NCBI GenBank assembly: GCA_973895155.1 | Contig: OZ316894.1 | Location: forward strand, 14,647,680 to 14,711,679 | Direction of reading: 5' to 3' | Source: Marsupella aquatica | Taxonomy: Eukaryota; Plantae; Marchantiophyta | Length of the DNA: 64,000 nt | Shown here: positions 32,360 to 58,794 of the stretch, piece by piece | Layout: each line of letters begins with the position of its first letter | Position numbering within the stretch: position 1 is the stretch's first letter | The notes under the pieces: generated by a model | What the model was told of the DNA's origin: nothing | The model's database searches: none | Seen by the model: only the letters and a program-made list of their open reading frames with translations | Translations under genes and position numbers: made by a program

Positions 32360-33345
32360 TGTTTGGCTGCTTCAGCATATGTCTTGTGCAGTAATTTCAG
32401 ACTTGTCTTAGCATAGAGATGCCTCTAAATGATGGGTTGGGACCTTGAGAGTCATGGCATGAAATATTTCAGGACTTTCCATAGAATCAGCAATAGGAGG
32501 AGAACCCTTGTTTGAGAATGCTGACATCCTGCTCTTCCTGGAGACTTGGCAATATGAGGAGAATGATCTACCTAGCATCAAGGATTTTACTTGCATTGGA
32601 TCTCTCTTCAATAAAAAGAACACCACAAGGGGAAGAGGGTTTGGAGGTATTGCAATCTACACCAAGAACCATCTTCAACACATGACATCTATTGAGCATG
32701 AAGATCCAAGCAAGCAATTCATGGTGGTGAGACTACATACTAGAGGTATTCCATCATTTCTAATTGTCACCTATTTTGCCCCACTTAGCATGAATGTGTA
32801 CAAGATGGGAACTGCTAATGCACAATATCCATTCCATAACTTGATTCAAGTTATACATGATGTATCAGTACTAGGAGAGACATGGATAGTGGGAGACTTT
32901 AATACTAGAGTGTCTCACCAACAATTCATTGATAGTGGAGATTTGGGGGCATTGCCTTGGATATCATGTAATGAAGACTCATCTTGGTTGAGAAAAGCTA
33001 TAGATACTAGGGTAAATGATATGACACCCCATTTTCTACAATTAGGAGCTTCTTGTAATTTGAGAATATTGAATGGGCTTGAAAGATTTCCTCATTCATC
33101 AGGTTACACATTTAGATCAAGCCAAGGATGTAACACCATTGATTATCTCCTAGCATCACCATCTTCAGCTAGTAGAGTGATTGATTTTAGAATACTTGAT
33201 CAACAACCAGAGTCTTCACATCTACCCTTGTTATTTCATCTAGATTTGGCCACAAGTTTTAGAGAGGGGATAACAAGGAAAAGACATATTTCTAGACTCT
33301 TTCTGGATCATGATAAGGTTGATGTATTTAGAGGGGAGATTGAGG
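32360..33345 (+). mobile_element. RTEX-like LINE family B, ORF1 end plus APE endonuclease (left part of the element split by the MULE)
   Basis: LRVMA*NISG start, LFLETW, GFGGIAIY, VGDFN, TIDY, SSHLP motifs; joins in frame to 54443 through GATTGAGG. Confidence 0.88.
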
Positions 33346-33354
33346 GAGGTTTTT

Positions 33355-33382
33355 CTCCGTGACAGGAAACTGGAAATAGTAA
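33355..33382 (+). repeat. Left subterminal inverted repeat CTCCGTGACAGGAAACTGGAAATAGTAA
   Basis: 27/28 match to the reverse complement of 54406-54433; extra ACAGGAAA units follow. Confidence 0.9.
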
Positions 33383-33903
33383 CAGGAAACAGGAAAACAT
33401 AACAGTAAAAGAAGACGGGGTTATACTCTGAACATTTGCCATCCATCAATAAAAATAGGGTTCAAGAGAACAGTTATAAAACGAAGTTCAAAAGTAAAGC
33501 CTGAGAAAAATGGCTCCATGTATTAGTAGCGCCTGGAGCTACTACAAAAAGTGGTGTCACAAAATCCAAAACATCCAAGAGGTCGGGTAAGAACAAACTA
33601 ATCCCCAAGACACTCATTGTCATTGACATACAACTCGGTCTATACTAAACAAAGTCCGAGAAACAAATCCGACTAGTGAGTGTCATTGTGGAATAAAAGC
33701 TATGCAAGGTGACGATACCTCTTACAACTTTAAACTCCAGAATATGTAGAGATGTCGCGAACAGTGAATTGACTTAACAACTAAAAAGCTGTATCCTACA
33801 AACTGAACATCCCGAACAAACAAAATCCTATCTCCTTTGTTCTTAATAGCAATAGCGCCGGGCGCTATCTATCACGAGAGTGTACAAAAAGACTTCCTAA
33901 AGA

Positions 33904-34374
33904 TCAGGATGTCGATGATCCACACTCATCATCGAGTCCTGCATTGAACCGATCTTCATCTTGACGAAATCCATCCTCCCGCTCATCAAAAAAATGCGGC
34001 CCTGGAAGGCAACTCCTAAGCTTGCAATTCGGTATGTTCAAATCAGAGAATCCAACTCGCCCAGTCCACTGTTGAATGTCCCTAAAAAATTGCGTCCTTC
34101 CAACCCCATAGTGATCAGAAGGGTCCGGATCGTGAATAGAGAAACGCTCTCGAATAGACCGGGGAGGCGATAAATGAGCAGAAGGAATAGATTTTGATCA
34201 GAAACTTATCCCCTCATCGGAGGCTAGCCACAATCGATTCCGCTCAGTTGATGTCTTAGAGTGAGTAGTATCTTCAATTGGGAAGTTTGCAAACAGATTG
34301 CCATCCGATGCTTTGCCCTCAAACTTTGCGAGGCGGGAAGTCCTCTCTTGTTTCACCTGCTTCCCTTTGTCCAT
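33904..34374 (-). pseudogene. Small conserved third gene of the MULE (unknown function), one internal stop
   Basis: MDKGKQV...ERFSIHDPDP...GRVGFSDLNIP matches MDHGTKV...ERFTIHWPLP...GRIDFQNTTIP at 59137-59567, in the same position relative to the MTase gene. Confidence 0.55.
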
Positions 34375-34863
34375 GGTCACTACACGAATGACTTTTAGTC
34401 TCTCAATGACTTTTAGTCTCTCAAAGGACTTGACACCGAAAAGCGCAAATGGCGAAGGCCTCCAAGAGCTCCTACAAATTGTCGAAAGGAGAGGGACAAA
34501 AGGGGAGAGTCTAAATGAAATGACTAACGATGCAGTTTCGAGAAAGGAAAAAGTTTCCATTTCAATCACGCATACAGAGAAAACGCCAGTCCATTGAGAT
34601 CAATGAGTACCACAAGCAATGACATTACGGAAGGGAAACGAACACTTGTATGGGTACTTCCGTTGAATTAAGTATTTCAGTACATTTGTCCTCCTGAAAG
34701 GATATACGGAACATCATACATTGCCCACCTTGTCTTAATCCAGCTTCACGTCATATGAATAATAAGTAGCGTCGGGAGCTACTATTTTGGAGGGGGGAAT
34801 TGACCAAACGGTGAAACTCTAATCTAATCTAATCTAGTGTAATCTAATCTAAGCTAATCAAAT

Positions 34864-37800
34864 CTAATCTGCACACTCTGACCCACTACTCTTCGATCTA
34901 TCTGTAGACTCTGCTTCATCGTCTACAAATTCATTCCATGCCATGTCGTCGACAAAAGGATGATGGATAAACTTCCGATCTGAACCTCATCTCAATCGCA
35001 AGCCTTTATTCTCCCAAGTCAGCGTTCTCCCACTCTCTTCTTTGCGAGCGGCATACTCGGCGTAGGAAGGCAATACAAATGGTTTCTCCGGGGTAATGAG
35101 AACCTTCCTTGAAAATTTCCTTTGTAGGTGAAACCTCTCGCGAATATTCCACTCGGACCTGCGAGTTGGTTAGAACATTAAGTACGTGGCTTTCATTGAT
35201 GTGTCTGAAACAAAACAAAGAAAACAAATAGTAAAGTAATGTGAAGGAGCTTACGGGCATTACTCCGAGGAATCTGAATCATCCGTTTCTCCTTCTGCAT
35301 TCCCCTCTTCCTTCTTCTCCTCTACATTATCTACATCTTCACCACCATCCACATCACCAACATCGGCTTCTTCTTCTTCGGAATCAAAATTAAGAACATA
35401 ACGAACTTTGTCCTTAACTTTTTTCCCCTGGTCTTTGCTCAGACCAGCGGCACTCACTTCTTTGGGGAGAAGAAGATCATTGAATGTCTTTTCAACAATG
35501 GACACAAATTCCTTGCGATTTTCAATCCCAAGAATGAAATGGCCACAGAAGTCACCCGCAACAAATGTGCTCCCAGAACCAACCGTCCAATCCATAACAA
35601 TATCTCCCGGACGCGTAATTAACTCAAGGACAGACTGCATGAAGCCGACAGGCAGACGAGCATTCCCAGCAAATGCACCTTCAGGAGAAGGATCATTCTT
35701 GAGACTTTGCAATCCAATGAGATTTGTGATTGAAGGGTCTTCAGTTACAGACAAAGGCTTGAACTTTACATCCTTTGGAACCCTGACTTTCGATGTAACC
35801 CGACTGAAGATGTTAAGTCTTAAGGTGAAAACCTGTGAATTGAGCAAGAAAAATGAGATATATAACAAGGGATATGGGTAGCGCCTGGCGCTACCAAAAA
35901 GCTAGACGGAAAATAAAGACTTTAACCCTAAACTCAATACCGTGAAATTGAATTTATGACTAGCGCCAAGCGCTAGCCAAAAAGAAAATCAACGATGAGG
36001 ATAATTACCTGACAATCGCTTCTGGCCATGTACATTGGGACGCCCATTACAACGTTGAGTGTTTTCAGGCATTGGAACTTCTGGGACTCTTGGCTTGCGG
36101 AAATAACTTGGGAGATCTGGTCGTACTCCCCAGTGTGCAAAATTGCTAACAATCCATCATCGGCTCGAAATGGGTCCATGGCCTGGAAAAAGGAACCTAC
36201 AATTTGGTGATCCGGGACATTCCACTTTGGCGACTTCCGGTGAAGCAAAGAAGGTCTTAGCCCCATTGGTAAATACACAAACCCCGCATCTACCCCAAAC
36301 GCTCTTAACTTCCCTCCCCTTACAACGCCTTTCTCGCAGAGACCAAGTGACACTAAGTCTTTCCCCCACTTTTCAACAGTTGTCACCCATGCGGGTTTGG
36401 TCTCATTTGTAAACACAGATTCAAAAAAGTCCATAACACTGGACTCAACAAACTTATGGCGGCTAACCTTTGAATTGAATCGACCAACTTCTCGTTGGAC
36501 CCCAGTGGACGCAATCGAACCAAGATCGTGGTTCTTCTTCTTCTTTTTCCTTGTGCTTGTGGCATCAACAGGACGAGATACGTTGGCATTGGTTGGAGGA
36601 GTTTGTTCTTCCGAGGCGTTAGCAGCCTCCATGTTTGCTTCGGAGAGCTCTCGGGTGATGGTCGTCTTTGCATCTTGCGTTTCTTCTCCCTCTGATTTTC
36701 TTCCCCCTGTAACAAGTATGAATAGAAATTAATTAAGGAAAATATACCAGCGCCTGGCGCTAGCCATCCAGAGTATCCATAAATTGTAACAGAATTATGA
36801 GTATCTATCTAACATTTCAAAGTAGCGCTTGGCGCTAACCAAAACTATGAAAAAAACCGGAAGAACAATAAGTTGAACATCTTACGTTTTCATCCAGATC
36901 GTGTCGACGGGCTATTCAATCCTGTATCCATTTTTACTTTTGCACGTGGCTTTTGGCTTCGGTCAACATGTGTGACTTCTGTCTCGCAAATTTTTTGAAG
37001 CTCAACCACTGAAGCTTCCACATCTCCCACTAAACCTTCCTTCATTCTGACAACAATTTGCAAGGAACTAGAGATTTGGACAATTTCAGAAAGGAGTCTT
37101 TCTCAAATTCATCAAAAGGTGTATCCCACTTATCAATATCGAGGTACCACGGACAGTTTGCTCTCTCCCACTCAGAAATGTCACGCGGAGGGTTGGCTCC
37201 ATCTGTCGGATACATACTGTAAACCTCGCTGAATGCATCCCCATCCATGACGGACCACTTCTGGAATGCAGGAGGGTAAGCCCAAAAGTATTCAGGCGAA
37301 ACGCTCTCCATGGACATGAAGAACCGATAAAGATATCTCTTTGCCCGCTTCTGGTTTCGTGTAGTGAAATCTTCTTTCTCCCCATACTTTGAAGCCCACA
37401 TTGTGTTGAAGAACTTGGCCTTCACAGTATCTCCGTAAATTCTGAAATCATTACAAACGCTCTGGACCAAACCATCAAAAGTATCTACTCCTCCTGTCAC
37501 GAGTCGTTCGGGAGGCATGATCGATTCAACTTGCCTGAGAGCAGTCTGCAACATCCCTATTGCAATTCCTTCTATCCAACTCCACATGTGCCATGTATGA
37601 CACCATTGCTTCACAGGTTCGTCATTCACACTAGGTGGATGGAAAAATTGTTTTCAAAGTTCAGGTGTGCAATGTGCCACAAGGAGAGTAGAACACAACT
37701 TCGGATCCAAAGCGGAGACAGCAGTGAAGAGTCAAGCACGATCCATTGTACAAACAACGGACTCTGCTTTCCGTTCCCGCTTGTTCTTTTCTGTCAGAGT

Positions 37801-39025
37801 GTACATTTCTGCACAAGTTGACAGAAAATCATTGAATTCAGGACTCAGGAGAGGAGTAATCTTTGAGGTCTTCACGCTCCATTCCTTCGTGGCCTCCTTC
37901 ATCATCGCTGCGTGACGCTTAGCGACCTCCTCTTTTGACCATGGCCGTCCTTAAGAGTTTGCGGTTGCCATGTCCATTTTGAATTGGAGAGAGTATGACT
38001 TGATCTTGTTCTCACACAAGATGTAAACAAGAGCCTCCAAAGGCATCTTCTTGGTATACCAAGAGCCTTTCCTTGTCTTCGCTCGAATTGCCTCAAATCA
38101 TTTGAAGCTTCCTGTGTCAATGATTGCCTTATAATAATCAAGGTCATGGGACAGAATCCGATTGATTCGATCTGCATCCAAGATCCATGACGGTTCTACC
38201 ACGGCTTGTCCCAATCTGAAACCAAACGGAAATCATCAGCGCCAGGCGCTAGCCAAACATCGACAAAAGTATTCATTATTTTTTACATTCAATGAAAGAA
38301 AATGATGGAACTTACTGATTGACTATGTGCATTGCAGCTTCAATCTCGATGAGAGAGCCTCGATCTCCCTTGAATACAGTGCAAAGCACACGAGGATGGT
38401 ACTTGATATTTTCGGGGTTTTCGTCCGTGATCTGTAACCAGGAATAGAGACGATGATTCTCGTCAAATACACAAAACATCTTGTCTTTTAAGACGAGAAA
38501 ATCGGGATCCATTTCGCAGCCCGCTTCAAATTTCTCATTCTGGGAAACCCATACAGCATCCCAACTCTCACGAATTTTGGGTGTGCAGAATTGGATAACC
38601 CCTTCAGAATCAGCGGGTTGAACATAGAACCGCATCCCTATGGAGGAGTTGTAACCGGAACTCCGAAATGAATCTTTGAGCTTCTCGATCGAAGCGTTCT
38701 CCTTCTGCAAAGTCCGGACGACTTCCATGTTGACTAAGCGGCAAAGCGGTATATAGGGGGGATCCTTAGGCTCTCCTCTAAAATCAGTCCCAAACGACAT
38801 CGCATGTTTCGCGATCACATCACCCATCGACAGAGCCCCTTCACTTCCGTCCTCCATCACGAAATCGCTGAAATTCTCCATGGCTCCTTGTTTCTGCTTT
38901 GGAACTGTCTGCCCAATATGTCAAAGTGACTGCGATGCAATTGAGCGTGTAACTCTTCGAGTGTAAACAGAACCAGAGAATGAAGTCTCGGATGTCTCAG
39001 AATTACCGGGAGAAGTATTGTCCAT
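34864..39025 (-). pseudogene. Five-exon ParB/Srx-like plus N4/N6 DNA-methyltransferase-like fusion gene, copy 2
   Basis: Exons about 39025-38316, 38215-36886, 36706-36009, 35832-35264 and 35158-34864. IPLCRLVNMEVVRTL...VFDENHRL; GVDAGFVYLPMG; ELITRPGDIVMDWTVGSGSTFVA...ILGIENRKEFV. Intron positions match copy 1. Confidence 0.85.
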
Positions 39026-39678
39026 CTCTGGATAAAGAGTAGAAGGCGGTAAGGTTTGGAATGTTCTCAACCAATCGTAGAGGTCTGCAACGTTATCCTG
39101 CGACTGGATAGATGAGCTCCACGTCGCAAACAGACAACACGGAGCACGTTCTTTCCCGAAAGACAGAGAGGACAGCGAATCTTAAAACATGATCAGACCT
39201 ATCGAATTGGCCTTTCACATGTAAAAGATCCATCAAAGACCGTCGATCAACTTAAATATTTACTTTTCATGATGAAAAGAAACAGCAAAAAGAGCGACGA
39301 CACCAACAAGAAAGAGACACATGTCACATGTTCTAAACGGTCATGATCAATAGAACCAAAATTTTCTAAATGACGTCTCTAAATCTTTGCCACTTTAGGG
39401 ATAAAACGGTCACTAAGGTATGAAGTTACCATTATAAATATCCGTTGAGTCACAACAACGGACAAGCATGTATAATAGCGCCCGGCGCTATTATAGAAAT
39501 TACACCTAAATCACCATAAATTTTCATACATTTCTATAATCACGCTCGGAGATATTAAGGGCCCTTACCATAAAATAAGCCCACAACATAATAGCACCCG
39601 ATGCTATTATTAAATCATTTCTGAAATGTCATTTAACTCCTTAAATACAACAATGGTCGTAAATTTCTTTGCTTTTTG

Positions 39679-42600
39679 TGTTGAGCATAGACGACATTCG
39701 CAACGGCAAGCCCATGAACCATCCAACGCACAATAGTCAACACAGAGAGATACATGGTTCACCTCCACATGAGGCTACGTCCACGGGAACACACAAGAGC
39801 TTTACTGCACTCTAGGCCGACCGGCCATACCAAGCATCCATAGCACAAGCTCTCCCTATCTCTCAACTAGCTCCGTAACAATGAGCCTAAGTTCCACCAA
39901 CGTCTGGCATCAGCCCTGGCTATATGCACACCAGCACTACCGCTAACATTAGCTAAGTCCTAACCCGAGTTAGACTAACTGTGGTTAGTTCATGAGTCAC
40001 AAGACTAGAGCAATATCTAACAAACTCCCCCTTGACTCTTGTCTTGGGGACTAGACTAAATGCTACTATATGGAATCCTCAACGGGAAGTTCTAGACAAT
40101 CACCAAACCAGGTCTCCCCCTAAAAACCACAAGGGTTAACTAGAACTAAGCCGTAGCCTAACAGGAATGAGTAATCCATATACAAATAGTCACACATTGC
40201 TAAATAACTCTACTTGCACTACAACTGCAAAACCTGCAAAGTAGCACGGTGTCTTGAGCAACTCTCCACAGGAATCACTTTGGTAAAGGCATCAGCGGGA
40301 TTGAGCTTTCCATCAATCTTGACTAGCTCAAAAGTTTTATCAGACACTGCTTGCCTGATAAAATGGTACCTGATATCAATGTGCTTCACCCTACTATCCA
40401 TCACCTAGTTAGTAGCCAAGTGAAGAGCACTCTGACTATCACAGTTTAGAGTCATTTTGCCATGCTCTAAACCCATCTCCGCGATCAACTTGTCCAACCA
40501 AATTATTTCTTTTGCTGTTGCAATATACTCTGCTTCTGTAGTAGACTGAGATATGCACTTCTGCAAGGTAGATTTCCAACTAATACATCCTCCTCCAAGA
40601 GTGTATACAAACCCAGTTGTAGACCTCCTTGTATCCAGACAGCCTCCATAGTCAGAATTTACATAGCCAACTAACGTTCTATCTGATCTATTATCAAATA
40701 GTAATCCATAGTCTTGTGTTCCCTTCAGATCCTTGAGAATCCACTTCACAGCTTCCCAATGTACCTTCCCTGGATTTGACATGAATCTGTTGACCTAGCC
40801 CATCGCTAGGGCCAAGTCAGGCCTAGTACAAGTCATCAAATATATCAGACTGCCTACTACCTTCTCATAAGGAATCTTAGCCATCAAACCTTTCTCCACA
40901 GCATCCGTAGGAGAGAAAGCCGATGATAACTTAAAATGTGAAGCTAAAGGAATACTCACTGACTTACAGTTCTCCATGTTGAATCGTGCAAGTACTTTCC
41001 TTGCATACTGGCCTTGACTCAAGCACAACTGTCCAGTCTCAGAGTTCCTAAAAATCTCCATCCCTAAGATCCTCTTGGCTTTACCAAGATCCTTCATCCT
41101 GAATTTAGCACTCAATTTTGCCTTGAGATTGTCAACCTCAGATTGATCTTTAGTCACAATAAGCATGTCATCCACATAGATTACCAGAATGATGAAACCA
41201 AATACATCATTCTTGACTGATTTTGTATACACACAAGGATCATACACCATCCTTGTAAAACCTTGAGCAAGCATGAAATCATCCACCACTTGCTGACCTC
41301 TTGGAAGCTCCACCAGCTCCCATGTCTTGTTGTCACTCAAAGATTGTAACTCCCTTTGCATTGCTACATTCCACTCATGCTTCTGCTCTGAAGCACAAGC
41401 CTCATTGTACGAAGAAGGCTCTCCTTCTTCCAAGATCAAAGCCATGTCATCATCATCAGGTGCAATGTCAATATCATCTAGCTTAGATGAGTCTGCCCAT
41501 TGACTATACCTGGTAGGAGCTCTAGTAGAACGACTAGAAGTTTTTCTAGTAGATGACTCAGGCTGATTTGTTGTTGCTGCTGGTTAAATTTGAGGTACCC
41601 CAACAACAATCTGCTCCTCTTGTTCCATCACAGGAACCAGCTCCAAGCCCAGAGCTTCTCCATCTCTCCTGTCATGAACTGCATCATGACTAACCTCCCC
41701 TTCAACCCGGTCCGGGATGAGAGATTTCCCCTTGTCAGTATGGGAGTCTTGAGAACTCTCCCCCTCCTTTGATGATCTGGATTCATTAAAGGACACATCT
41801 CGACTGACAATTAGCTTACAGGGTACTGGATCCCATAACCTATAACCCTTCACACTTTTTTGATAGCCAAGGAAAATGCACTTCTTTGACTTGGACTCCA
41901 GCTTGGATCGCAGCTGGGAAGGTGTAAGCACATAAGCATCACATCCAAAAATCCTCAGATGTGAGTAATCTGCTGGACGCCCGTACCTCATTTCAAATGG
42001 CGTCTTGAATCCAATAGAACTGGATGGAGAAAAATTTACCAAATAAGCTGCAGTGTTGACAGCTTCAGCCCAAAACTCATGTGGTAAGCATGATTGACTC
42101 AATATACTCCTCAAGCGGTCCAATAGTGTTCGGTTGAGTCTCTCAAAAACACCATTCTACTGAGGAGTATAACTTGTTGTGAGACGGCGGGTAATCCCCT
42201 GCTCCTTACAATATGTCACGCGATTGACATGGGTCTTAACACCAAAAACGTCACTATGGGTGCCAAAACCATCTCCTTGTACCTGAGGATCACGAAGGGA
42301 TGTTGTGAATGCCGGTAAACACCAGTTTATGCCCTTAACACCAGACTATCATAGCAAGACTCTATCACACATCACCCAAGCTCAATCCCAAGGAACCGAG
42401 GTTGGGGATCAGATCTGTGCTCATGATAGTTCTGGTGAGAAGGGGTCTTCATATCGGGCCCGTACACACAGGGCCTAGCGCTACGGTGCGCATAGGTCTA
42501 TACATATGCTTACTGTCATAGGTATGTTTCTATTCTGCCGCCGGAATGTACCCATAAACCAGTGACTCCTGACTGATTCCCGGCTTAGGGACTTCTAAGC

Positions 42601-45600
42601 CATTGCCCCACCACTCTGCCATTCCACTCTCAACAATCAGAGCTATGACAGTCCTCACCCAGCCCGCTTCAATGCACCCGGTACACCTCTCAGTGGCGCT
42701 ACTAGTTCCATCATACACTCAGATTGCCTCACACACACACACATCCATGAGAGAAATGAGGCCTGAGAGGAAAACTCAATTAGATTCAACGATGTGCACA
42801 ATAGTTCACTAAGAACACTTGATCCGAACAATAGGCCCGAAGGCTGTCTACTCCAGATTGCAGCGTGCTTGCCCCGCAAGCCCCATGCTTGCCATGCAAG
42901 CTCAATCCTGAACCTGAGCCCGGCTCACTCCAGATTGCGACGGCATATTGGACTCAAACCAATCCCGTACTTGCCTTGCAAACTCAATCCTGAACTCAAC
43001 CTCCTTCACTGCACTTCATTCTTGGGGGCACATACAGATCTCACACCTCCAATTCAGAACGTCAAGTTACGCATACATAGTTGACTCGACTTCAAAGCTG
43101 GTACCAGGCCTAATGGCGATCTACCCCAGACTGCAATGAGGCCCGGCCTCACGCTTGCCCTGCAAGCTCCGCTCTGGCCATAGATCCCTTAGTGCTCTCC
43201 ACCAGACAAAGGCCGGGACTCCCCATGGATCACGTAGCCTTGCCAGACTGAACTGTAAATGCTCCTCCTGCTGCCCCTCAATCAGTGTCTCAGCCTCCCT
43301 AATGTGCTCACCACAAATCAAATTGACATCCTCCCCACAGTTTACAATCACCAATACATCACCTATCACCAAGGCTCTGTATCGGGGGAAAAGAACCCAG
43401 TTGTGCTACTCACTAGAAAGAGCCACAATCCAGTTCGCAAACCTAGCAACCCGTTGCTGTGAAGCTTGGCTGATTACTCCCTGAGTAATAGCACAACCAA
43501 GCTCTCCCCAACACGCAGCGTCCAAGTCCAGCCTTGCTTGCACAGAGCTCCTCCCTGCTGCTCAGTCTAAGTGAGATCACACAACTGAAGTCCCCCCCTC
43601 TGCCTCTACCGGAGGGATGCTCTATATACTCTCTCATTGAGCCCAAATGGGTGGATGCTACGCTGCTGGAGCCCCATCCCAGCCCTAATAGAGCCGCCAC
43701 TATCTCTAACTACTGAACCCTAACTCGCAACTTTATTTCTATCTCGAATTGGCTATGTACTTCGGATTCGGCCCTCCTCCATAGTTTTTGCGAGCTTGCG
43801 CCTCCTCTCCCGATTTCTCTATTTAACCATTTTCTGCGTGGATAGCAACGTTGGAAGCGGCTTGAGCTCCTCTTTCCAACGAGGTCAATTATAGCCGATT
43901 TGGTCAAATACACAGAGAGTTATGCCCCCGTAACCGAGAGGGGGTACTCACTGTTGCGCTAACCCGAGTTACATAGCTAACCCGAGTTCGGCTAACCTAG
44001 CTATCCTATCTAACCCGAGTAGAGCTAACCCGTGGTCTCGGGTTAGGCCGTCACCCGCTATCCGCTATCCACTATCCTAGCCTAAGCTGAGCCCGAACCC
44101 GAGCTTACCTATGCTAACCTGACCCCGAGTTAAGTCTAACCCGGGATCAATCTAATCCGAACCCGGGTTAAGCCTAAGCTGAAGCCGTGCTTACCTAAGC
44201 TAAGCTGAAGCCGTGCTTACCTGAGCTAAGCTGAAGCCGTGCTGACCTAAGCTAAGCTGAAGCCGTGCTGACCTGAGCTAAGCTGAAGCCGTGCTCACAT
44301 AAGCTAAGCCGTGGTCGAGCTTGGGTTAACCCGAAACTGAAGCCGAATCCGCTAATTCCGGCCACAAGTTAACCCGTCACACTAATCAGGCCGTATCTTT
44401 CTTAATACACCTCCGTTTCCTGAGTGTTTTATATCGATTTTACTCGCCTTGACCAGATCTTTCCAATGCTCTTTACAGATCCGGATTTGGTGACATATTG
44501 AAAGAGATATGGTCGCCGACCACCTGCGACATAGCTTTTATTTCCCTACTCTTAACGCCATGATTGCCCTTATTCTTGCCATCTTGCTAATTGTTATGCA
44601 ATATCAATAGCTACTCCTTGCATACAGCAACCTACTTAATCAGATTACAAAATAAGGACCATGTCATTGGCGTCACACAATACATTCTAAATTCCCCGGA
44701 ACTGTATTCACCGCCGTTATCCGATCAAAGATATCTCATCTTATTACCAGTCTGATTCTCAACTTGGGCTTTCCACTCCTTAAAAGTGACAAAAACATCA
44801 GACTTACTGTGTAGAAAGTATATCCACACATACCTTGAGTAATCGTCAATGAACGTGACATAGTATAACCGTCCAGAATGTGAGGGAGTAGAGGCTGGAC
44901 CTCACATATCACTATGTACATACTCAAGTACCTCCTTGCTGGTGTGAGTTCCAACTCCGAAGGGTTTCCTGTGCTGCTTTCCTAGCACATAGTACTCACA
45001 AAATTCCAACTTACAAGATTGCAAATTAAAAAGTACTCCTTTCTTCTAAAGAATAGCCAAACCTTTTTCACTCATGTGGCCCAAACAGAAGTGCCATAGC
45101 CGGGCCGTCTCCTCATGAGATGAGGTTATATTGGCTTCATCACAAACTACACTGCCCTCCAAAACGTATAGATTGCAATGTCTCTTTCCTTTCAATACAA
45201 CTTTAGTACCAGTTGAAACCTGAAGGACACCATTAGCAAAACTCCACTAATGGTCATTTGCTTCTAAAACTCCAAGTGAAATGAGATTTTTCATCATGCT
45301 GGGAATATGTCTCACATTCCTCAACGTTCTCATAGCACCATCAAACATCTGAAATCTTACAGATCCAAGTCCAACAACTTGACATGGGATTCCATTTCCC
45401 ATCAACACTGACCCATTGGAAACCGTGTAAGAACTGAAACAATCTCTCTTAGAGCAAATGTGAAAAATACTTGCACTATCTAGAATCTAGTCATCACTAC
45501 CTGGATTTGACACTACGTTGAGAGCATAACCTTGACATCACAATATGTCATCATCATTGAGTAAATTTACCTCATGCAAGCTCGATGCCGCGTTAGCAGA

Positions 45601-47592
45601 TGCAGTAGGGACCTTTACTCGACAATCCATTTTCATGTGGCCAGGCTTGCCACAATTCCAACATGCAAGAGGCTTCCTCTCTTGCGATTTCCCTCTGGAT
45701 TTAGATCTCCCCTGTGATGTAGATCTAAACCTATTCGGCCCATTTGTACGTTGCGCTACTCTCCCACGGTTCACGTTCAGCGTAGTGCCAGAAGAAGATG
45801 CTGTCTGTGATTGACCCAACTTCTTCTGAGCATCATTAGACAATAATGAGCTCACCACCGCATTATACGAAATGGACTTCAGATCTCTATACAAGAGCAC
45901 CTGTTTCAAGCCCTAATATGACGGCGGTAAGGAGCTTAGCAGAAGCAAGGCCTTATCCTCATCTTCAACTCCTTTTCCTAGGTTTGATAGATCCACCGCT
46001 AGACTGTCAAATTCATCCAGGTGATCCTGCATCTTGCTCCCTTCCTTGAGCCTGAGGCTCATCAAGAGAGACTTCTTGTACAGCCGGTCTGACGCATCTT
46101 TCCGGTAGAAGCTCTTAGAGCCTTGAACAATGACGCGCAATCCGCATAATCATCCAGCTGCTTGATGATGTGCGGCTTGAGATATAGCATCACTGCATTG
46201 ACAACAATCACCTGCTCCTGTCTCCACTGCTTCTCTGAAATATCCTCCTCTCCATCATACTACTCTCGCGATGAAAGCAAATGAGCTAAGCCCATGGCCC
46301 GTAGAACACCCTTCACTTGCTTCTCCCATAGCAAGTAAGTAGTTAGTACGACCATCGTACTTCTCCACCTCAAACTTCACTCCTCCGAATCTAGCCATCT
46401 CCCTCTTCTTCCCTACTACGGATAACTCTGGTAGTAGTACAGCTTCCTCCACTGCACGTCGCATCGGTGATCGTGGTAAGTGAGGGAGCCGGGTGTGTGT
46501 ATACACACACAAGACTCCTTTAACCCCTTTAAAACAAAAAAATAACCCCAAAATAAAATTTGAGTTCTCACCTTAAAAAACCGCTATTTACACTAAGGAA
46601 AAGATGAGTGCCAACGGTCCAAAGTTGCCAAATTTTACCGGTTAGGTTTGCAAGCTCCGTAGTGGGAAAAACTTTCCGTCGTGTCACACTCACTCCGTGT
46701 CAAGTGCCAATCCCGGGCTCAAAACGACCGCCTTGCCGCGATCAAAACATTGAGTCGTAGCACTTCGCGTTTCTTCCACCGAGTCGTATGTCACGAAGAG
46801 AAACCCGGTTCAGATGTGAACAAGCTCCATAGCTTGTAAAAAAACCTGAACGCCTCCGTCACTTGTCACGTCGCACTCGGTAACAACTCGGTAGCAATCC
46901 AGCTACCGAAACGACCAGCTTGCTTCAACCTTCAACTTGAGCTATAATGTGTGATCCCTCCCGCACCGCACAGCTCACATCGTTGAAAAACGCAAACTCT
47001 GGTCTCTCCCCCGAAAAGCTGTCGAATATGAATAAACCCTGAATGATGCAAACTTCAATTCCTCCGCACCACTGATATCGATCAGCAAGTTCTAACCACC
47101 GTTAGAAAGTCCTCTCACTAACCTATCCTCATAGCCACACACATTCGAGTTTCATGCGACGAAACTCTAAATGTACCATCAACAATGAACGCTGGAAAAA
47201 CCTGTCACAAAAAACCCCGTCACCTCCCAGGCATGCTTTGATACCACTTGTTGAGCATAGACGATATTCGCAACGGCAAGCCCATGAACCATCCAACGCA
47301 CAATAGTTGACACAGAGAGATATGTGGTTCACCTCCACATGAGGCTACGTCCACGGGAACACACAAGAGCTTTACTGCACTCTAGGCCGACCAGCCATAC
47401 CAAGCATCCACAGCACAAGCTCTCCCTATCTCTCAACTAGCTCCGTAACAATGAGCCTAAGTTCCACCAGGGTCTGGCATCAGCCCTGGCTATATGCACA
47501 CCAGCACTACCGCTAACATTAGCTAAGTCCTAACCCGAGTTAGACTAACTGTGGTTAGCTCATGAGTCACAAGACTAGAGCAATATCTAACA
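39679..47592 (-). mobile_element. Full-length but decayed Ty1/Copia (Tork/Tnt1-like) element nested in the MULE intergenic region
   Basis: 344-bp LTRs at 39679-40022 and 47249-47592 (about 10 mismatches by eye); TSD TTTTG; PBS TGGTATCAAAGC; PPT GGGGGAGTT; gag CWNCGKPGH, integrase, RT YVDDML with internal deletion, RNase H. Confidence 0.95.
42214..44677 (-). mobile_element. Solo LTR (2464 bp, probably Ty3/Gypsy) nested in the Copia integrase
   Basis: TG...CA ends; 5-bp TSD CAATA; internal ~23-bp tandem repeat 44170-44310; inverted near-copy at 51948-54378. Confidence 0.88.
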
Positions 47593-47970
47593 TTTTGGAC
47601 ACGTAAATATGTATTATTAATAATAGCGCCAAGCGCTATCAATGTTGTGGGTAAATATATATCTCATCTTGTTGTATTTTTGGGTTCATCTCCACATATT
47701 GTGTGGCATGAAAAAAGAGATTTTTGCTAGCACTCGACGCTACTAATATCCATTGCTGAAGATGCCGTTAAACTAACGGAAACATTTTTATTCCAACGGT
47801 CATCCGCTGCCATTCTTTGGTCACTTTTCCATTGCATCAACGGTAATTAAATTGGAATTCGACTTGTCGTATGGTGGTTTCTTTGTTGAAGTTTCTTAGA
47901 AGCGGTGAAAGAAGAAACTAAAACTATCACGACACTCTCATTTTACCATTGTGGTCGATGATATTCCGCA

Positions 47971-50900
47971 ATGCAGCGTGTAATTAGAGTAAGTTGTTCG
48001 GCGACAGGTGAGGTGATTACCGTACTTGTGACCAATCGACCAGGTACTCAATGCGTTAGTGAGAATTATCTTTCCACAAGATTTGATGTCCAAAGGAAAG
48101 ATATTGATAATTTAGGTACATTTGCTGGTTGTACAGCTCATTTCCATTACAATCAAGGAGAGAAATTCTGGGAGTTGCATATTGGTGTTGATTACTCTCT
48201 ATACCTCAAAGGAAAAGATGATGTTCGTGTTAAATTACAGAAGGTAATTGCACCCAGGGAAGTCATCGATCTCACATCTGAAGGCGAGGACTCATTCCTT
48301 GGATCTCCTTTTTCGATGGATGTTGGAAACATTAAGAGAGAAGAATCGGTTCCAGTACATCAGGGGAGCTCATCGAAGGAACGGGTTCCTCCAGTTTTTC
48401 CAGGATTGAACAAAACAATTAGTGGATCTGATACACTTCTTTTAGCTCTGCCTGTTACTGTTGTCTATAGGCGAAGCGCGTTAGATGCACTTTTGAAATC
48501 ATCTGGACAAAGTGAGCTTTCTCGCTTTGTTAAATCGGAGGTTTTCACGCACGAGCAAGTGGAATTGCTTCCCAGAAGTTATAATGGCATTGTCATATTT
48601 GAGCTTCCACCTGTTGATTGTGTCGGTTCAATAGGAAAGCGTCTCCTTAACATGGACCGGTCAAAGGATTGCTATCTATGGACTAGAATTTTCCCCACTT
48701 CAACCAAGGTCTTACCTAAGAAGATGTGGGAGTTTGGCAAGGTTAGTTGTAGCGGGTCACTAGAATGTCGAAACAATTCATGCGAGTTTTATATTAGAAC
48801 CAATGGTAGGAATTGTTCATCTTGGGAAGGGACCCCTAAGTTAGGAGGTCAACATTGTCCAGGAAAGTTGATTGATGCAGGAGGGATTGTTTGTCGTTAT
48901 TGTCTGCAGCTCCCATTTTGTGTGGACTCTTGCCCCGCAAAAATGTTTTGCTTGATTCGGTGATAGTGCAACATATGTCACGCCTCGCAATCCACATGGG
49001 TGTACATAATCATCCATGTCGAAAGATTTGGTCTAGAAGTTCAGAGAAAATAGCGGTCGAGGAGATTCGAAAAGAGCACTTGAAGAATCCTTCTTCCGCG
49101 CCTTGTGTTGTAAAAAATGCAGTCACTGGATCTTTGAAGGATGCACTAGATGAATCTGTTCATGACATTTCAAAGATGGAAGAGACTGAGATTTGGCAGT
49201 CACTTATGCTTGTTTCCACTCCACAGAAATTCTCTGCCTTGTTTAAGAGCGTCCGAAAAGATCAGGCTGGTCATGGAGATCTTGAATATCTGGTTCGAAT
49301 GCAGAAGAATGTGAGGTTTCCATTTGTTCAAAGGTATCTTCTTCCGGGGCAAGGCTGTAAGGAAGACCGTGCTCATATTTTCAAAATGACAATCAAAGGT
49401 CATGGATCCGGAGTCGATCTACTTTGACAGATGAAAAAAGGTGGGCCACTTGAAGGAGCATGGTGAGTTTTGATGTCATGCATCGAATGTCTAAAGAATG
49501 GAGCACTTTCAGTGCCCACGTCTATGACCACAACTATCGAGTGTTATGTACAATATTTACGTGCAAGCTGAAAGCAGAGGACACTGAATCTCTTGAGAAA
49601 GCTTGGAGATTGATGATTGAGGTCGCTTCAGAAAATGGGTTACATGATGTTCAAATTCACGAATTCATGGCTGACAATGCTCATGCGGGATGGCTTGCGG
49701 TGAGAAATGTTTTCTTTGGGGGCCATCCAAATCCAGAGAAGGAGAGATCAGACGCTTTTCATTTTTACCAATCTTTGCATCGCCATTCCATCGAAGGAGT
49801 GTTGGAAGACAAACGTGCAGAGCATCGAACCCTCTGGGATAAGCTCAGAAATGCATCAACTTTTGTTGAAGCCTATAGAATCTCCAGAGAGATTGATTTA
49901 TGGTGGAGATCCGGAAATTGCGTTCCTGGAAAGCTTCGGATGCTGCAAGGATGGATCTCTTGGTGGGTTGTAAGATGGCGGCAGTGGGGAAATTTTATCA
50001 GACTTGTGAGTATGACATTGACATGGCCTTTTCATTTTTCAATATCTCATATACTTCTAAACTAGCGCCGAGCGCTACTATTAAGACTCTATTTTGCTTA
50101 ATTCTCTTATCCTTTTTGACAACGCCCGACGCTACTTTTAATTTGTAAGTATTGATAAATAATATCATCACGTCTTCCAAAGTAATATTCGAGATTTGAC
50201 CAACCCTCGCCGTCCTGCAGAGCAAAAGTGCACAAGGAGGGATGATTCCAAATTGCACAGGATCTGAGGCAGTTCATGGTATCATGAAAGCTTGGCAAGG
50301 GAAGAAAACTATAGGTTTATTTGAGGGGTGCAAAACTGACCACAATCGAGCAATCTCCCAAATTGCCGCCTATACTGTCTATCGTGATGGGTTACATAGA
50401 GGTACAGGTCCTATGGTTTTTGAACTAGCTTTCCGTTTTGCAGATCAGGCTGGGTCCCCTCGATTGTTCGAAGAGGCTTCTAATTTTCTACTAGCTAATG
50501 CGGCGGAATTTGATTTGGAGAGGAGTTCTCCATTGAACGATGATTTTGTAACCAAATCTGTCAAAAGAAAAGGTCCAGCGACAGGGAATGTCTCGGCACA
50601 AGACTCCCATCGTCATGACACTATTCTGATAACAACACCAAATACACGGGGTTTGAAACGGAGAAATCTGAACTCTACTCAGTTTTCTCATATTCCACTT
50701 AGTACTCCTCAAACACCAATCGATTTGACTGGGAGTGAAGAAGACCCGGGTGACATGCAGGATGCACCTCCTTCTGGTCGAGGTGGAGCATCTTCAATAT
50801 TACCAGAAGTCTTTTTTAACCAAAATCCAGTCGTCCCTGACACGTCGCTTTTGGAGATGGACGTTGATCCCGGTTCTTGGCATCTTCGTCGAATTTTAAG

Positions 50901-51726
50901 ACTTGGGCCCGGCCCACAGTGTAACGGGACATTGTCAGGGAGATGCAATCATGATGAGTGTCAAAATCGTATTAAGAAGGTTGGATATCCTTCCAATGCT
51001 GGTGTCATCGGAGTTGTTGTCAAAGGACATCGCCTATTCAGAGGAGAACCTCATGCAGAGTTTGTGTGGTTCTGCCCCAACGGCAATTGTTGGAAGAGTC
51101 GCCCACGTCGAGGTATAGCAAACCTGCCTCCTTATCCAGTGTCCTTGCCAATACTGAAAGGAACAAATATGTCAAACTTGGAGATAAGTTTCCTTGAAGA
51201 ACAGGGTGTTGTAATCCTCTCACGAGACCAAAGCGTGGCCTCCAGCCCTACTCCTTTTGATTTGAGAATCAATGTTGATGTTTTTCCTGAGAAGATCAAT
51301 ATGGCACAAATCAACATCCGTTCTTGAACTAGGAACGGGCGCCCAATGAACCCCAGATCAAATCTTACTCAGGAATATCATAGAAGGATTGAATCTGCTG
51401 CTAAGGAAACAATGACTCTCATCACAAAATTGGACTTCTCCTCAGGGAACTCTTATGGGAAACGATTTCGCATCCAAACACACGCTCATTTGAGGACGGC
51501 AAACACTTACTGGGTGCAGATTTGCATATTCCCATGCTGCTCTTGTGAGGATTTCTTTTGCCGGCATTCTCGAGGAAGACCTTTCATGCCTTGTAAGCAT
51601 TTGTACTAGGTTTACAAAATGGTCTTTAAGCTGGATCCATTGGATTCAGTGTTACCAAGCCAACCAATTCTTATTATCGGTGAACTCCAGTACATCTTAG
51701 GAATGAAGAATACGCATGGTTTTTAG
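47971..51726 (+). pseudogene. Mutator-like transposase: GCM/WRKY-like Zn domain, DDE core, Cys-rich insert, C-terminal SWIM
   Basis: CSGSLECRNNSC...CRYC...HMGVHNHP; FDVMH (D1), FMADNA (D2), DAFH (C/DxxH), intron 50006-50220, GSEAVH (E); CSCEDF...PCKHLY SWIM. Stops and frameshifts near 48955, 49425, 51325 and 51607. Confidence 0.85.
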
Positions 51727-51947
51727 GAATTCTGACCATTCTAGTAGACGTTGAACGGGTATTTAGTCAATGATGTTTTGTAACGGTAACAAACATTTGG
51801 GTAGCACTCGGCGCTAGTAAACGTGTCTTCCGACAATTGTTGTTTTTCCCATCATATTGGACTTCATGTTGAAATTGACCTCATTGGTTTTGTAGAGAAT
51901 TATGCCATGTTTTGTGGATGATAGTACCAATTCTCCTATTTTGTTCC

Positions 51948-54378
51948 TGTGACGCCAATGACATGGTCCTTATTTTGTAATCTGATTAAGTAGGTTGCTG
52001 TATGCAAGGAGTAGCTATTGATATTACATAACAATTAGCAAGATGGCAAGAATAAGGGCAATCATGGCATTAAGAGTAGGGAAATAAAAACTATGTCGCG
52101 GGTGGTCGACGACCATATCTCTTTCAATATGTCACCAAATCCGGATCTGTAAAGAGCATTGGAAAGATCTGGTCAAGGCGAGTAAAATCGATATAAAACA
52201 CTCGGGAAACGGAGGTGTATTAAGAGAGATACGGCCTGATTAGTGTGACAGGTTAACTTATGGCCGGAATTAGCGGATTCGGCTTCAGTTTCGGGTTAAC
52301 CCAAGCTCGACCACGGCTTAGCTTATGTGAGCACGGCTTCAGCTTAGCTCAGGTGAGCACGGCTTCAGCTTAGCTCAGGTGAGCACGGCTTCAGCTTAGC
52401 TTAGGTCAGCACAGCTTCAGCTTAGGCTTAACCTAGGTTCGGATTAGATTGAACTCGGGTTAGCCTAAACTCGGGCTCAGGTTAGCATAGGTAAGCTCGG
52501 GTTCGGGCTCAGCTTAGGCTAGGTTAGCGGATAGCGGGTAGCGGCCTAACCCGAGACCACGGGTTAGCTCTACTCGGGTTAGATAGGATAGCTAGGTTAG
52601 CCGAACTCGGGTTAGCTATGTAACTCGGGTTAACGCAGCAGTGAGTACCCCCTCTCGGTTGCGGGGGCATAACTCTCTGTGTATTTGACCAAATCGGCTA
52701 TAATTGACCTCGTTGGAAAGAGGAGCTCAAGCCGCTTCCAACGCTGCTATCCACGCAGCAAATGGTTGAATACAGAAATCGGGAGAGGAGGCGTAAGCTC
52801 GCGAAAACCATGGAGGAGGGCCAAATCCGAAGTACATAGCCAATTCGAGATAGAAATAAAGCTGCGAGTTAGGGTTCAGTAGTTAGAGATAGTGGCGGCT
52901 CTGTTAGGGCTGGGATGGGGCTCCAGCAGCATAGTACCCAGCCATTTGGGCTCAGTATGAGAGTATATAGAGCAGCCCCCCGGTAGAGATGGGGGGGGGG
53001 ACTTCAGTTGTGTGATCTCACTTAGACTGAGCAGCAGGGAGGAGCTCTGTGCAAGCAAGGCTGGACTTGGACGCTGCGTGTTGGGGAGAGCTTGGTTGTG
53101 CTATTACTCAGGGAGTAATCAGCCAAGCTTCACAGCAACGGGTTGCTAGGTTTGCGAGCTGGATTGTGGCTCTTTCTAGTGAGTAGCACAACTGGGTTCT
53201 TTTCCCCCGATACAGAGCCTTGGTGATAGGTGATGTATTGGTGATTGTAAACTGTGGGGAGGATGTCAATTTGATTTGTGGTGAGCACATTAGGGAGGCT
53301 GAGACACTGATTGAGGGGCAGCAGGAGGAGCATTTACAGTTCAGTCTGGCAAGGCTACGTGATCCATGGGGAGTCCCGGCCTTTGTCTGGTGGAGAGCAC
53401 TAAGGGATCTATGGCCAGAGCGGAGCTTGCAGGGCAAGCGTGAGGCCGGGCCTCATTGCAGTCTGGGGTAGATCGCCATTAGGCCTGGTACCAGCTTTGA
53501 AGTCGAGTCAACTATGTATGCGTAACTTGACGTTCTGAATTGGAGGTGTGAGATCTGTATGTGCCCCCAAGAATGAAGTGCAGTGAAGGAGGTTGAGTTC
53601 AGGATTGAGTTTGCAAGGCAAGTACGGGATTGGTTTGAGTCCAATATGCCGTCGCAATCTGGAGTGAGCCGGGCTCAGGTTCAGGATTGAGCTTGCATGG
53701 CAAGCATGGGGCTTGCGGGGCAAGCACGCTGCAATCTGGAGTAGACAGCCTTCGGGCCTATTGTTCGGATCAAGTGTTCTTAGTGAACTATTGTGCACAT
53801 CGTTGAATCTAATTGAGTTTTCCTCTCAGGCCTCATTTCTCTCATGGATGTGTGTGTGTGTGAGGCAATCTGAGTGTATGATGGAACTAGCAGCGCCACT
53901 GAGAGGTGTACCGGGTGCATTGAAGCGGGCTGGGTGAGGACTGTCATAGCTCTGATTGTTGAGAGTGGAATGGCAGAGTGGTGGGGCAATGGCTTAGAAG
54001 TCCCTAAGCCGGGAATCAGTCAGGAGTCACTGGTTTATGGGTACATTCCGGCGGCGGAATAGAAACATACCTATGACAGTAAGCATATGTATAGACCTAT
54101 GCGCACCGTAGCGCTAGGCCCTGTGTGTACGGGCCCGATATGAAGACCCCTTCTCACCAGAACTATCATGAGCGCAGATCTGATCCCCAACCTCGGTTCC
54201 TTGGGATTGAGCTTGGGTGATGTGTGACGGAGTCTTGTTATGATAGTCTGGTGTTAAGGGCATAAACTGGTTTTTACCGGCATTCACAACATCCCTTCGT
54301 GATCCTCAGGTACAAGGAGATGGTTTTGGCACCCATAGTGACGTTTTTGGTGTTAAGACCCATGTCAATCGCGTGACA
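51948..54378 (+). mobile_element. Solo LTR (2431 bp), same family as 42214-44677, opposite orientation
   Basis: TGTGACG...CGTGACA ends; 5-bp TSD GTTCC; TATA-like GTATATAG near 52963. Confidence 0.88.
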
Positions 54379-54405
54379 GTTCCACTCTTTTTCCTGTTAT
54401 GATCA

Positions 54406-54433
54406 TTACTATTTCCTGTTTCCTGTCACGGAG
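54406..54433 (-). repeat. Right subterminal inverted repeat of the MULE
   Basis: TTACTATTTCCTGTTTCCTGTCACGGAG is the reverse complement of 33355-33382 with one mismatch. Confidence 0.9.
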
Positions 54434-54442
54434 GTCGGGCCC

Positions 54443-55281
54443 GATTGAGGCCCTACTACCAACACATTCCAATGTGTTGGAACTATCACAACTGATAGCA
54501 AAAGCAGCTACTACTGTATTCTCTAAAAGATCATTGTCCACAAAACAAACCATGAAAGCATGGTTTGATGCAGAGTGTGTAGAAGCTAGAAGGAGGGCCA
54601 TGGTACAAGCTGAAGATGTAAAGGTACTTGCATTGAGAATGTATAGTAACTTTGTGAAGCACAAGAAGAGATGCTTCATGAGGCAACATCAACAAGTGCT
54701 TTCCCAAGAACTTCAAGAGAATCCTAAAGGCTTTTGGAAGAGATTTCAGGTGAAAAAAGAAGATACTTGCTTGGAGCAACAAACATTGGTAAGCTATGTG
54801 AAGTCTCTCTACTTCTATCCCGAAGCTACTTCCATGCCTTTGGAGATTGGGGAAGCTATTCAATTCTCAGATATAGAGGTGCAAACTCAACTATCTAGAA
54901 TGCAAAAGGGCAAGGCTGCAGATTTGCAAGGGTTCACAGTGGAGCTCCTACAATGGGGTGGATCTTCTTTGGTATCAGCACTCACTGCATGTTTGAATCA
55001 AGTGGTCCAAGGTGGCTTACCTCCAGATTGGAGTACAAGGAGATTGGTACCTACTCACAAGGGAGACTCTAAGAATGAGGTGAGCAACTATAGGACTATC
55101 ATGATAGCTAGTATCTTTGCTAAAGTTTTAGGAGGACTACTAGAAGCTAGACTTAGATCTTGGGTTGAAAAACACATGAAAAGAGCATCATCACAAGCTG
55201 GTTTTAGGGCAGGTTTTAGTACTCTAGATCACATGCTTTGCCTTAGAGTGTTAGAGGAGAGGGCTAAAAGACTCAAGCTAC
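54443..55281 (+). mobile_element. RTEX-like LINE family B, linker and RT N-part (right part of the split element, 3'-truncated)
   Basis: WFDAEC, GKAADLQG, NYRTIMI, QAGFRAGFSTLDH; near-identical to 62030-62439. Confidence 0.88.
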
Positions 55282-55884
55282 TTGTTCATTCACCTACCGA
55301 TGTGGACTTGTCTTGCCTTGGGGGTCTGTGTAGCTTGCAAGGGGCACCTTCGTTGCAATCCTTACCCATTATCTAGAATATTGAAGGTAAGGTGAAAATT
55401 ATTGGCTTCACTCTTGTGCAGAAGCGTTGACCAATTTTCCACTCAGTTTGGGAGAAGAAAACATTGAAGGATGATAAGTAAGGAGTATGGAAGGGGAAGA
55501 GTTTTTCTCCATGGTTGAGGTTTTGCTTGCTTAAGAGTTGAAGTTGTTATGATGGTGTAGGACAAGTTAGAGTAGATAGGCTAATTTGAAGCCTTGTTTT
55601 TGATAGACTTGTTGGAGGGGTTGAGATGCAATCTTATACATACTACTTGGTGTTACTTGCTAGGAGGGTTGCTCGCTCAAGGTATTACGTAGAGGCATTT
55701 AAGCACCAGAGCACTTAGACGTGGGCGCTAAGTGTCTAGGTTGGGGTATTTATATAAGACAGGAAACCGGAAACCAGGAAACCCAAAACAAGAACCGATG
55801 ACAGGAAATAGGAAATAGGATACACAAAACTTCAACAAAGAATGCGGGAATTTTTTTTGGGATGAAGCAAGATCTTTCCTTGAA

Positions 55885-58580: not shown

Positions 58581-58794
58581 CGCAAGATCTTTGACATTTG
58601 AAACAGGTTTTTTAGAAGATTTGTGTCAAATCCAGGAAAAATGGTTGAGACCAAGAATAGCGCTAGACGCTTGTATTATAAACTTTTGGAAACTGTTTTC
58701 CCAGAAAGCATAGGGTCGCACTAGGCGCTGCCAAAACTAGTTTAGAAATCTTTGCTATATATCTACTCTATAACAACCAAATCAAAATATGGAT

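Follow-up and report, generated by a model that had tools for sequence, protein, structure and literature searches.

Background

Earlier papers on Sola, Plavaka and Mutator transposons of algae report accessory genes with ParB and methylase domains and propose that their products target their own element. Sola1-1_Ec32 of Ectocarpus is described as encoding, on the strand opposite its transposase, a 1104-amino-acid protein with ParB and N4C/N6A methylase domains, for which self-modification has been proposed (PMC12477816). Red-algal Plavaka elements are reported to carry PF01555 and ParB accessory genes together with inverted-repeat arrays, and homologues of these genes are reported in Mutator elements of Chondrus (bioRxiv 10.1101/2025.02.11.637652). 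Algae are also recorded to have methylases linked to ParB, and DIRS1 elements to have methylase domains that are inactive (PMC4738411). VANC motifs, which vary from family to family, are described from introns and from spacers (PMC5735166), and the Marchantia and rotifer papers on N4-methylcytosine (4mC) deal with active enzymes without ParB. Analysed here is a transposon of the liverwort Marsupella aquatica that spans positions 33346-54442 of a 64,000-nucleotide stretch (the window; contig OZ316894.1, positions 14,647,680 to 14,711,679 of the forward strand) and joins a ParB and a methylase fold in one accessory, or cargo, gene.

This element (copy A) has exact ends and a defined gene structure. 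Its cargo gene has both folds, the catalytic Asp is replaced by Tyr here and by Ala in another copy, the encoded protein bears the marks of selection, and the non-coding DNA holds palindromes that differ between subfamilies. The reading preferred here, held tentatively, is that of a dead two-gene transposon, likely Mutator-like, whose protein of ParB and pseudo-methylase parts would bind the element's own palindromes and counter silencing without methyl marks. As far as literature searches reach, the occurrence in land plants, the apparent loss of catalysis and the subfamily-specific intronic palindromes seem to be new. The earlier note on this stretch, made from the sequence alone, knew of no family with such an architecture. 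The algal precedents weaken this claim. When the literature was searched for a ParB-methylase fusion in land plants or in Mutator elements, algal papers alone came up, and Repbase, Dfam and supplements may list such elements.

Structure and family of the cargo gene

The cargo gene lies on the minus strand in five exons, with GT..AG at 4/4 introns. Exon 1 (38316-39025) holds the ParB/sulfiredoxin-fold domain and has one stop, at 38923. Exon 2 (36886-38215) encodes a conserved middle region and has five stops and a frameshift near 37044. Exon 3 (36009-36706) encodes a linker and the N-terminal half of the methylase fold, and exon 4 (35264-35832) the half of this beta-class amino-methylase fold that binds S-adenosylmethionine (SAM), followed by an acidic tail. 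Exon 5 (34864-35158), with one stop, is 61% identical to copy C across 97 codons. In total the gene carries seven in-frame stops and one frameshift in copy A, where the transposase is also a pseudogene.

The stop codon of exon 4 overlaps the donor of intron 4 in copy A (35260-35266) and in copy B (7198-7204). Exon 5 is reached only if this donor is spliced, and whether the C-terminus is short or long would depend on splicing. The small third open reading frame (ORF) that the earlier note had listed is present as ORF3 (34560-33904, minus strand), of about 218 codons with one in-frame TGA at 34200; it matched no family in the Pfam scan, and tblastx shows weak conservation in copy C (E 8e-9).

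Two further copies of the cargo gene lie in the window. Copy B (10770-6722, minus strand) has the same five-exon layout and is 29-54% identical to A by exon. Copy C (59112-63999, minus strand), comprising exon 4, exon 5 and ORF3, is 61% identical to A in exons 4 and 5, is cut by long interspersed nuclear elements (LINEs) and runs off the window end; the region as a whole, with its LINE insertions, covers 58630-64000. Within the 64-kb window no transposase match was found for copies B and C, and neither ends nor a target-site duplication (TSD) of either. Copy B, whose region extends over 6722-13135, may stem from an element of a sister subfamily that is non-autonomous or has been disrupted. All cargo copies seen in the window are broken. 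Between them synonymous sites are saturated or nearly so, with a proportion of synonymous differences (pS) of 0.67-0.85 against 0.24-0.50 for nonsynonymous ones (pN), A and B being compared without exon 5. The cargo protein is, by this measure, under selection at the protein level.

The family extends beyond the window. Four sequencing runs from two studies gave 393-1107 cargo-matching contigs per run, most less than 95% alike, and comparison with these contigs marks the frameshift and the Gly-to-Glu change in DGNH as lesions peculiar to copy A. An HMMER search at E 0.001 gave 268 homologues of exon 1; the 20 that were looked up include sequences of Riccia sorocarpa (10) and Adiantum (4), and R1sor_027256 of R. 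sorocarpa (1207 amino acids) covers the ParB, middle and methylase regions. Word-index searches for which exon 1 and copy B's middle region were the queries, and which covered longer proteins only, gave no matches, and a metagenome scan of 60 candidate stretches gave one locus of 2 kb, too short for the cargo gene. Because of the window copies, the diverged contigs and the Riccia and Adiantum homologues, the cargo gene is read as an old multi-copy family and not a one-off capture. A Pack-MULE cargo, unique to one element and free of protein constraint, does not describe it, and the suggestion of a stable gene, made for a Mutator-like element (MULE), is supported as regards stability, also by the substitution comparison that had been proposed as a check. 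The annotation of P0158 of Adiantum capillus-veneris puts a ParB-domain homologue and a NIF/FCP1-like phosphatase domain into a single protein, which may be a gene-model fusion.

The ParB/sulfiredoxin domain

A structure model of exon 1 from 52 sequences reached a predicted local distance difference test score (pLDDT) of 95.7 and a predicted template modelling score (pTM) of 0.90; an earlier model from 3 sequences only had a pLDDT of 51. With this model the first 22 rows listed by Foldseek (ranks 1-32) are ParB, Noc, KorB, PadC or sulfiredoxin, the best at E 0.018 and probability 0.99. In the VIA structure search 11/11 rows are proteins of ParB/sulfiredoxin (Srx) fold, five of which we take to belong to this superfamily, and the best has Z 7.0 and a root-mean-square deviation of 2.7 across 91 residues. 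No unrelated fold ranked above the ParB/sulfiredoxin proteins in these searches. Identity to the bacterial matches is 6-20%.

The nucleotide-binding Arg, GxxR and Asn motifs of the fold are present in the exon-1 family, with R39 in 47/52 members, G124 in 47/52, N125 in 51/52, H126 in 49/52, R127 in 45/52 and N171 in 48/52. The family motif is DGNHR; copy A has DENHR, with Gly in the other copies. Exon 1 is therefore modelled, and accepted here, as a ParB/sulfiredoxin fold. CTP (cytidine triphosphate) gating is not implied by it, because sulfiredoxin and kinases share this fold.

The exon-1 profile gave nothing credible against PDB sequences. In the ESM Atlas exon 1 falls near clusters at 0.93-0.96; besides unnamed ones these are DUF3723, with 31% of members, and ParB_N, with 11%. 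The DUF3723 clusters near exon 1 (38315-38860, minus strand) are fungal. DUF3723 is a Starship-associated gene, which would make it a further case of a ParB-like accessory gene in giant elements. A tree of 29 ParB domains, made of A and 28 others picked from 150 listed matches and cluster members, leaves copy A unresolved and places the Riccia and Adiantum rows mostly in separate groups.

The methylase domain and its motif IV

Exon 4 matches Pfam PF01555 across the SAM-binding half (E 1.2e-7, above cut-off), and it also matches beta-class methylases in PDB and 75 phage records. Its SAM-binding motif I, DWTVGSGS with GIE after it, is kept in 3/3 window copies. The profile of the whole methylase domain aligns with that of seven phage methylases at probability 97.9 and E 4e-13, and in this profile-profile alignment the DLPT column of Riccia falls on their motif IV. 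Motif IV lies upstream of motif I, as in beta-class N4C/N6A methylases. By these matches exons 3-4 have the beta-class N4C/N6A methylase fold. The exon-3 profile gave nothing credible against PDB sequences, and exon 3 had no usable match in the ESM Atlas. The five-exon gene with ParB-like and methyltransferase-like motifs that had been read from the sequence thus stands in its exons and, through Foldseek and profile searches, in both folds; it does not stand as an intact enzyme gene, given its seven stops and frameshift and the absence of catalytic motif IV.

The motif IV column reads YLPM in copy A (36275-36264) and ALPT in copy B; in Riccia it is DLPT (twice), DMPS and DMPT, and in Adiantum DVPF and DFPI. 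The Asp is thus retained in 6/6 liverwort and fern homologues, one of which, DVPF, has an aromatic fourth residue. The catalytic motif (D/N/S)PP(Y/F/W) was found neither in A and B nor in the other copies, where the Tyr is kept. In contigs of 4/4 sequencing runs the sole listed change of the Tyr codon is synonymous, the listed changes of the Val, Leu, Pro and Gly codons are synonymous too (4/4 runs), and the fourth residue is Thr; this view covers copies at least 80% alike and at least 3% of depth. The Asp or Ser and the aromatic residue of motif IV are described as positioning the target base (PMC10406627). Since Tyr or Ala stands at the catalytic Asp/Asn/Ser position, the protein is likely a pseudo-methylase, in a subfamily that conserves a non-catalytic motif. 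For the same reason the proposal that the element marks itself with 4mC or N6-methyladenine (6mA) is not supported.

Palindromes in the non-coding DNA

The palindrome TAGCGC-nnn-GCGCTA occurs at 13 sites in the core of copy A at up to 2 mismatches, 7 of them perfect, against a mean of 0.07 and a maximum of 1 in 30 dinucleotide shuffles. The sites start at 33527, 33853, 34767, 35879, 35961, 36748, 36823, 38237, 39476, 47624, 47728, 50063 and 51802. Although exons make up 73% of the core, 13/13 lie outside them, in three of the four cargo introns, the transposase intron, spacers and subterminal DNA, in agreement with the many non-coding palindromes first noticed in the sequence.

Copy C carries palindromes of the A type at 59112 and 60058. 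Copy B has none of this type and a palindrome of its own, YAGCGA-nn-TCGCTR, at 6520, 7764, 11339, 11572, 11750 and 13122; five of these lie in 5.4 kb, where 0.03 are expected, and one lies past a LINE. On the unrelated contig L001, three palindromes with a 2-nt spacer are found in the corresponding transposase intron. The VANC-like placement that had been suggested is therefore present in A, B and L001, each having its own short motif in non-coding DNA, as VANDAL families have for VANC. The palindromes are likely docking sites of the accessory protein. The CAGGAAA-type units of the left terminus, at 33363, 33370, 33383 and 33390, which are likely transposase sites, differ from the internal palindrome.

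Most palindrome cores are CCNGG. These cores were considered as a sign of 4mC and this was rejected, the core variants fitting ordinary deamination of 5-methylcytosine of the host.

Ends of the element, its transposase and nested insertions

The exact ends first read by eye were confirmed. The element is flanked by an 8-bp TSD, GATTGAGG, at 33338-33345 and 54443-54450. Its 28-bp terminal inverted repeats, at 33355-33382 (plus strand) and 54406-54433 (minus strand), are complementary at 27/28 nt (96%) and each begins 9 nt inside the element end. Removal of the element in silico restores a LINE frame of 602 open codons with the junction at codon 294; this LINE has a Pfam endonuclease match left of the junction and a weak reverse transcriptase match right of it.

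The 21.1-kb span had been taken as one element. Its ends stand, and 10.3 kb of it consists of younger insertions, leaving 10.74 kb as the element proper. A nested Copia retrotransposon (39679-47592, minus strand), whose long terminal repeats (LTRs) are identical at 334/345 positions and whose TSD is TTTTG, is not part of the element proper. Within it lies a likely solo LTR (42214-44677, plus strand; TG..CA ends, TSD CAATA as read from the sequence), and a second one lies near the right end (51948-54378, minus strand; TSD GTTCC). The two are about 2.45 kb each, 96% identical, opposite in orientation and have internal 26-bp tandem arrays. They were inserted independently; an inversion between them was rejected because each retains its own 5-bp TSD.

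The transposase is a two-exon pseudogene on the plus strand (47971-51726; intron about 50006-50220) with 2 frameshifts and 3 stops. It has an N-terminal Cys/His cluster, a D..D..DxxH..W..E pattern and, at 51328-51606, a SWIM-like CxC..CKH motif near the C-terminus. Of 91 candidates, twelve proved to be relatives, with identities of 47-77%; one of the twelve is from Calypogeia fissa. The D..D..DxxH..W..E pattern was seen by eye in these 12 homologues and in contig L001, whose transposase is 60-68% identical in the catalytic exon. At cut-off 0/12 relatives had a Pfam match, the Pfam scan of the transposase gave no SWIM match, and its profile matched no solved structure in PDB. The label of DDE/SWIM transposase given to it at first thus keeps its plus-strand gene and its motifs, which are motifs read by eye, because the pseudogene has neither a Pfam nor a PDB match.

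Elements of the hAT superfamily, too, make 8-bp TSDs. Mutator TSDs are given as 8-11 bp (PMC6446971), a range that includes the TSD found here, and the CxxH/W features of the MULE-type DDE domain are described as shared with hAT (PMC5225508). In Mutator elements the terminal inverted repeats lie directly inside the TSD, or are missing altogether in non-TIR MULEs; those of this element are offset from the TSD by 9 nt. The element is likely a Mutator-like DNA transposon on the basis of these features, and not more firmly so because hAT shares CxxH/W. Beyond the right end, by 1.3 kb, two degenerate copies of the terminal repeat core (55758-55818, plus strand) are perhaps the end of another family member.

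Function of the accessory protein

The accessory protein would bind the palindromes of its own element as a dimer. In canonical ParB the N-domain is not the sequence reader, so reading of the palindrome is placed in the middle region or the methylase fold, either of which could provide it. Nucleotide binding at the conserved R, GNHR and N residues might let the protein load and spread like ParB. The element would then be shielded from host silencing, or re-activated against it, as with VANC and without the writing of methyl marks, and the terminal CAGGAAA units would serve as separate transposase sites. A stronger version, in which a seed-free land-plant family runs a ParB-parS-like, nucleotide-gated clamp with a pseudo-methylase that loads at intronic palindromes, spreads and blocks silencing while reader and palindrome co-diversify, is rather unlikely as a whole.

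Several observations weigh against the anti-silencing reading. No Foldseek match of exon 1 reached E 0.001, all VIA Z values are below 8, and at E 0.1 a Pfam ParB family was matched by 0/52 exon-1 members. Taken by itself, the motif-IV half gives only a weak match to methylases (E 0.005), its score of 24.4 comparing with 22.4 as the highest of 30 shuffles, and the two window rows by themselves gave none. The Asp is kept in all six database homologues that cover motif IV, so there may be active proteins in other subfamilies. Cargo and transposase occur side by side in 1/3 window copies only, and Riccia proteins are absent among the transposase matches. Seven of the cargo and transposase stops read TGA, and the differences among the palindrome cores are C-to-T changes, as would be expected if the copy was methylated and silenced. 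The observed/expected CpG ratio is 0.71 in A, 0.54 in copy B and 0.32 in copy C, with 0.17 in LINEs, 0.56 in the Copia element and 0.63 in another LTR-like element; because the two LTR elements are also high, CpG content is no evidence of escape from methylation. Transposases themselves are reported to induce sequence-specific hypomethylation, acting at termini (bioRxiv 10.64898/2026.08.24.746577).

The same features can be arranged differently. ParB proteins spread and condense DNA, and the accessory protein could be a structural helper of transposition, it or the transposase binding the palindromes to condense or bridge the 10-kb element for pairing of its two short, offset ends; its target would then not be chromatin. 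Short ends that begin 9 nt inside the termini, palindromes spread along the whole element, a catalytically altered methylase fold and CpG data without a specific sign of methylation escape all suit such a helper. It is nevertheless somewhat unlikely, since copy B, for which the window has no transposase match, retains both the palindromes and the cargo gene, the SAM-binding motif of all three window copies would be needless for a pure scaffold, and separate terminal repeat units exist for the transposase. That retained motif I and the acidic residue after it could instead belong to an active non-canonical methyltransferase, or to the SAM-binding partner of an active paralogue, marking 4mC or 6mA near the palindromes. 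The Asp of the liverwort and fern homologues, with its one DVPF, and the CCNGG cores would agree with this, as would the description of beta-class enzymes as dimers whose subunits divide the work (PMC10406627). In A, B and the sequencing-run copies, however, the Asp has given way to Tyr or Ala, and the fourth residue is Thr in place of an aromatic one, these being the residues said to position the target base, which makes enzymatic marking decidedly unlikely.

Palindromes 39476, 47624 and 47728 flank the region shared by the divergent genes, and KorB is the top VIA row, tied with others. A self-repressor that binds operators of its own element in the manner of KorB, damping transposase expression and so limiting harm to the host, could be read from this. 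Most palindromes lie in introns or downstream of genes and not at promoters, and a fold match does not show function; such repression is very unlikely. The broken state of every window copy is what would be expected of passive cargo captured once, with palindromes as functionless remnants. Against this stand the saturated synonymous sites in a conserved protein, the 268 homologues and the hundreds of diverged contigs in each of the four runs, and palindromes far above chance that are also kept in the unrelated element L001. On these data passive capture is largely refuted and keeps hardly any probability.

VANC and transposase-derived factors are the sole means demonstrated so far by which a plant transposon reprogrammes the chromatin it lies in, and for the algal ParB-methylase accessory genes function was hypothesised from domain names. 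The ParB-pseudo-methylase family makes that hypothesis testable, with defined candidate sites of 14-15 bp that differ between subfamilies, a natural series of catalytic motifs from DVPF to YLPT, and a full-length homologue, R1sor_027256, in a liverwort close to a tractable model genus. Caution is due with 'N6_N4_Mtase' matches in fern and liverwort gene sets, which probably belong to transposons and in many cases do not represent active enzymes.

Other features of the window

A frameshifted ORF fragment (30040-30837, minus strand) matches neither the cargo gene nor Pfam; by eye its motifs resemble another ParB-like N-domain. Near-identical LINE 3' parts recur at 3750-5006, 11800-12967, 28231-29492, 58794-58933 and 62560-63435, a sign of recent activity. 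At 13246-13500 two LINE 3' ends lie head to head as a 240-bp imperfect inverted repeat. Tandem arrays are found at 14344-15063 (181 bp), 20774-21079 (103 bp) and 22015-22376 (87-107 bp).

Comparison with described systems

Bacterial ParB, Noc and KorB act at parS palindromes. The exon-1 fold, the Arg, GxHR and Asn pattern and the 14-15-bp palindromes are shared with them. In the partition proteins a helix-turn-helix after the ParB domain reads the palindrome and the clamp is gated by CTP; here the reading would fall to the middle region or the methylase fold. CcrM, M.MboIIA, rotifer N4CMT and Marchantia MpDN4MT1 likewise have motif IV before motif I and a motif I region matching PF01555. They are active host or bacterial enzymes with DPPY or SPPY, in contrast to the transposon-borne, ParB-fused protein with YLP(M/T) described here.

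VANDAL elements and this locus have in common a Mutator type, likely here, and the presence of an accessory gene; in both, short motifs that are specific to the family lie in introns and elsewhere in the non-coding DNA. The accessory protein had no VANC match in Pfam at cut-off and has ParB and methylase folds instead. VANC motifs are described as non-palindromic 8-9-mers in tandem repeats, and anti-silencing is proven for VANC, whereas for this element it is a proposal.

The Plavaka elements, as described, are closer in their mobile PF01555 and ParB-like accessory genes, in the adjoining inverted-repeat units, in the self-binding hypothesis and in having homologues in Mutator elements. Their domains are in separate genes (methylase with SET; ParB with 2-oxoglutarate oxygenase) and are fused here; their repeats form tandem arrays next to PAG3, whereas the palindromes found here are single and dispersed.

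Sola1-1_Ec32 is compared by its description, the available text of PMC12477816 mentioning neither a catalytic motif nor palindromes. Like the present element it is a large DNA transposon with ParB-like and N4C/N6A methylase domains in one protein encoded opposite the transposase. The liverwort element differs from it in its Mutator-like transposase, its 8-bp TSD, its land-plant host, its lost motif IV and the palindromes dispersed through its introns.

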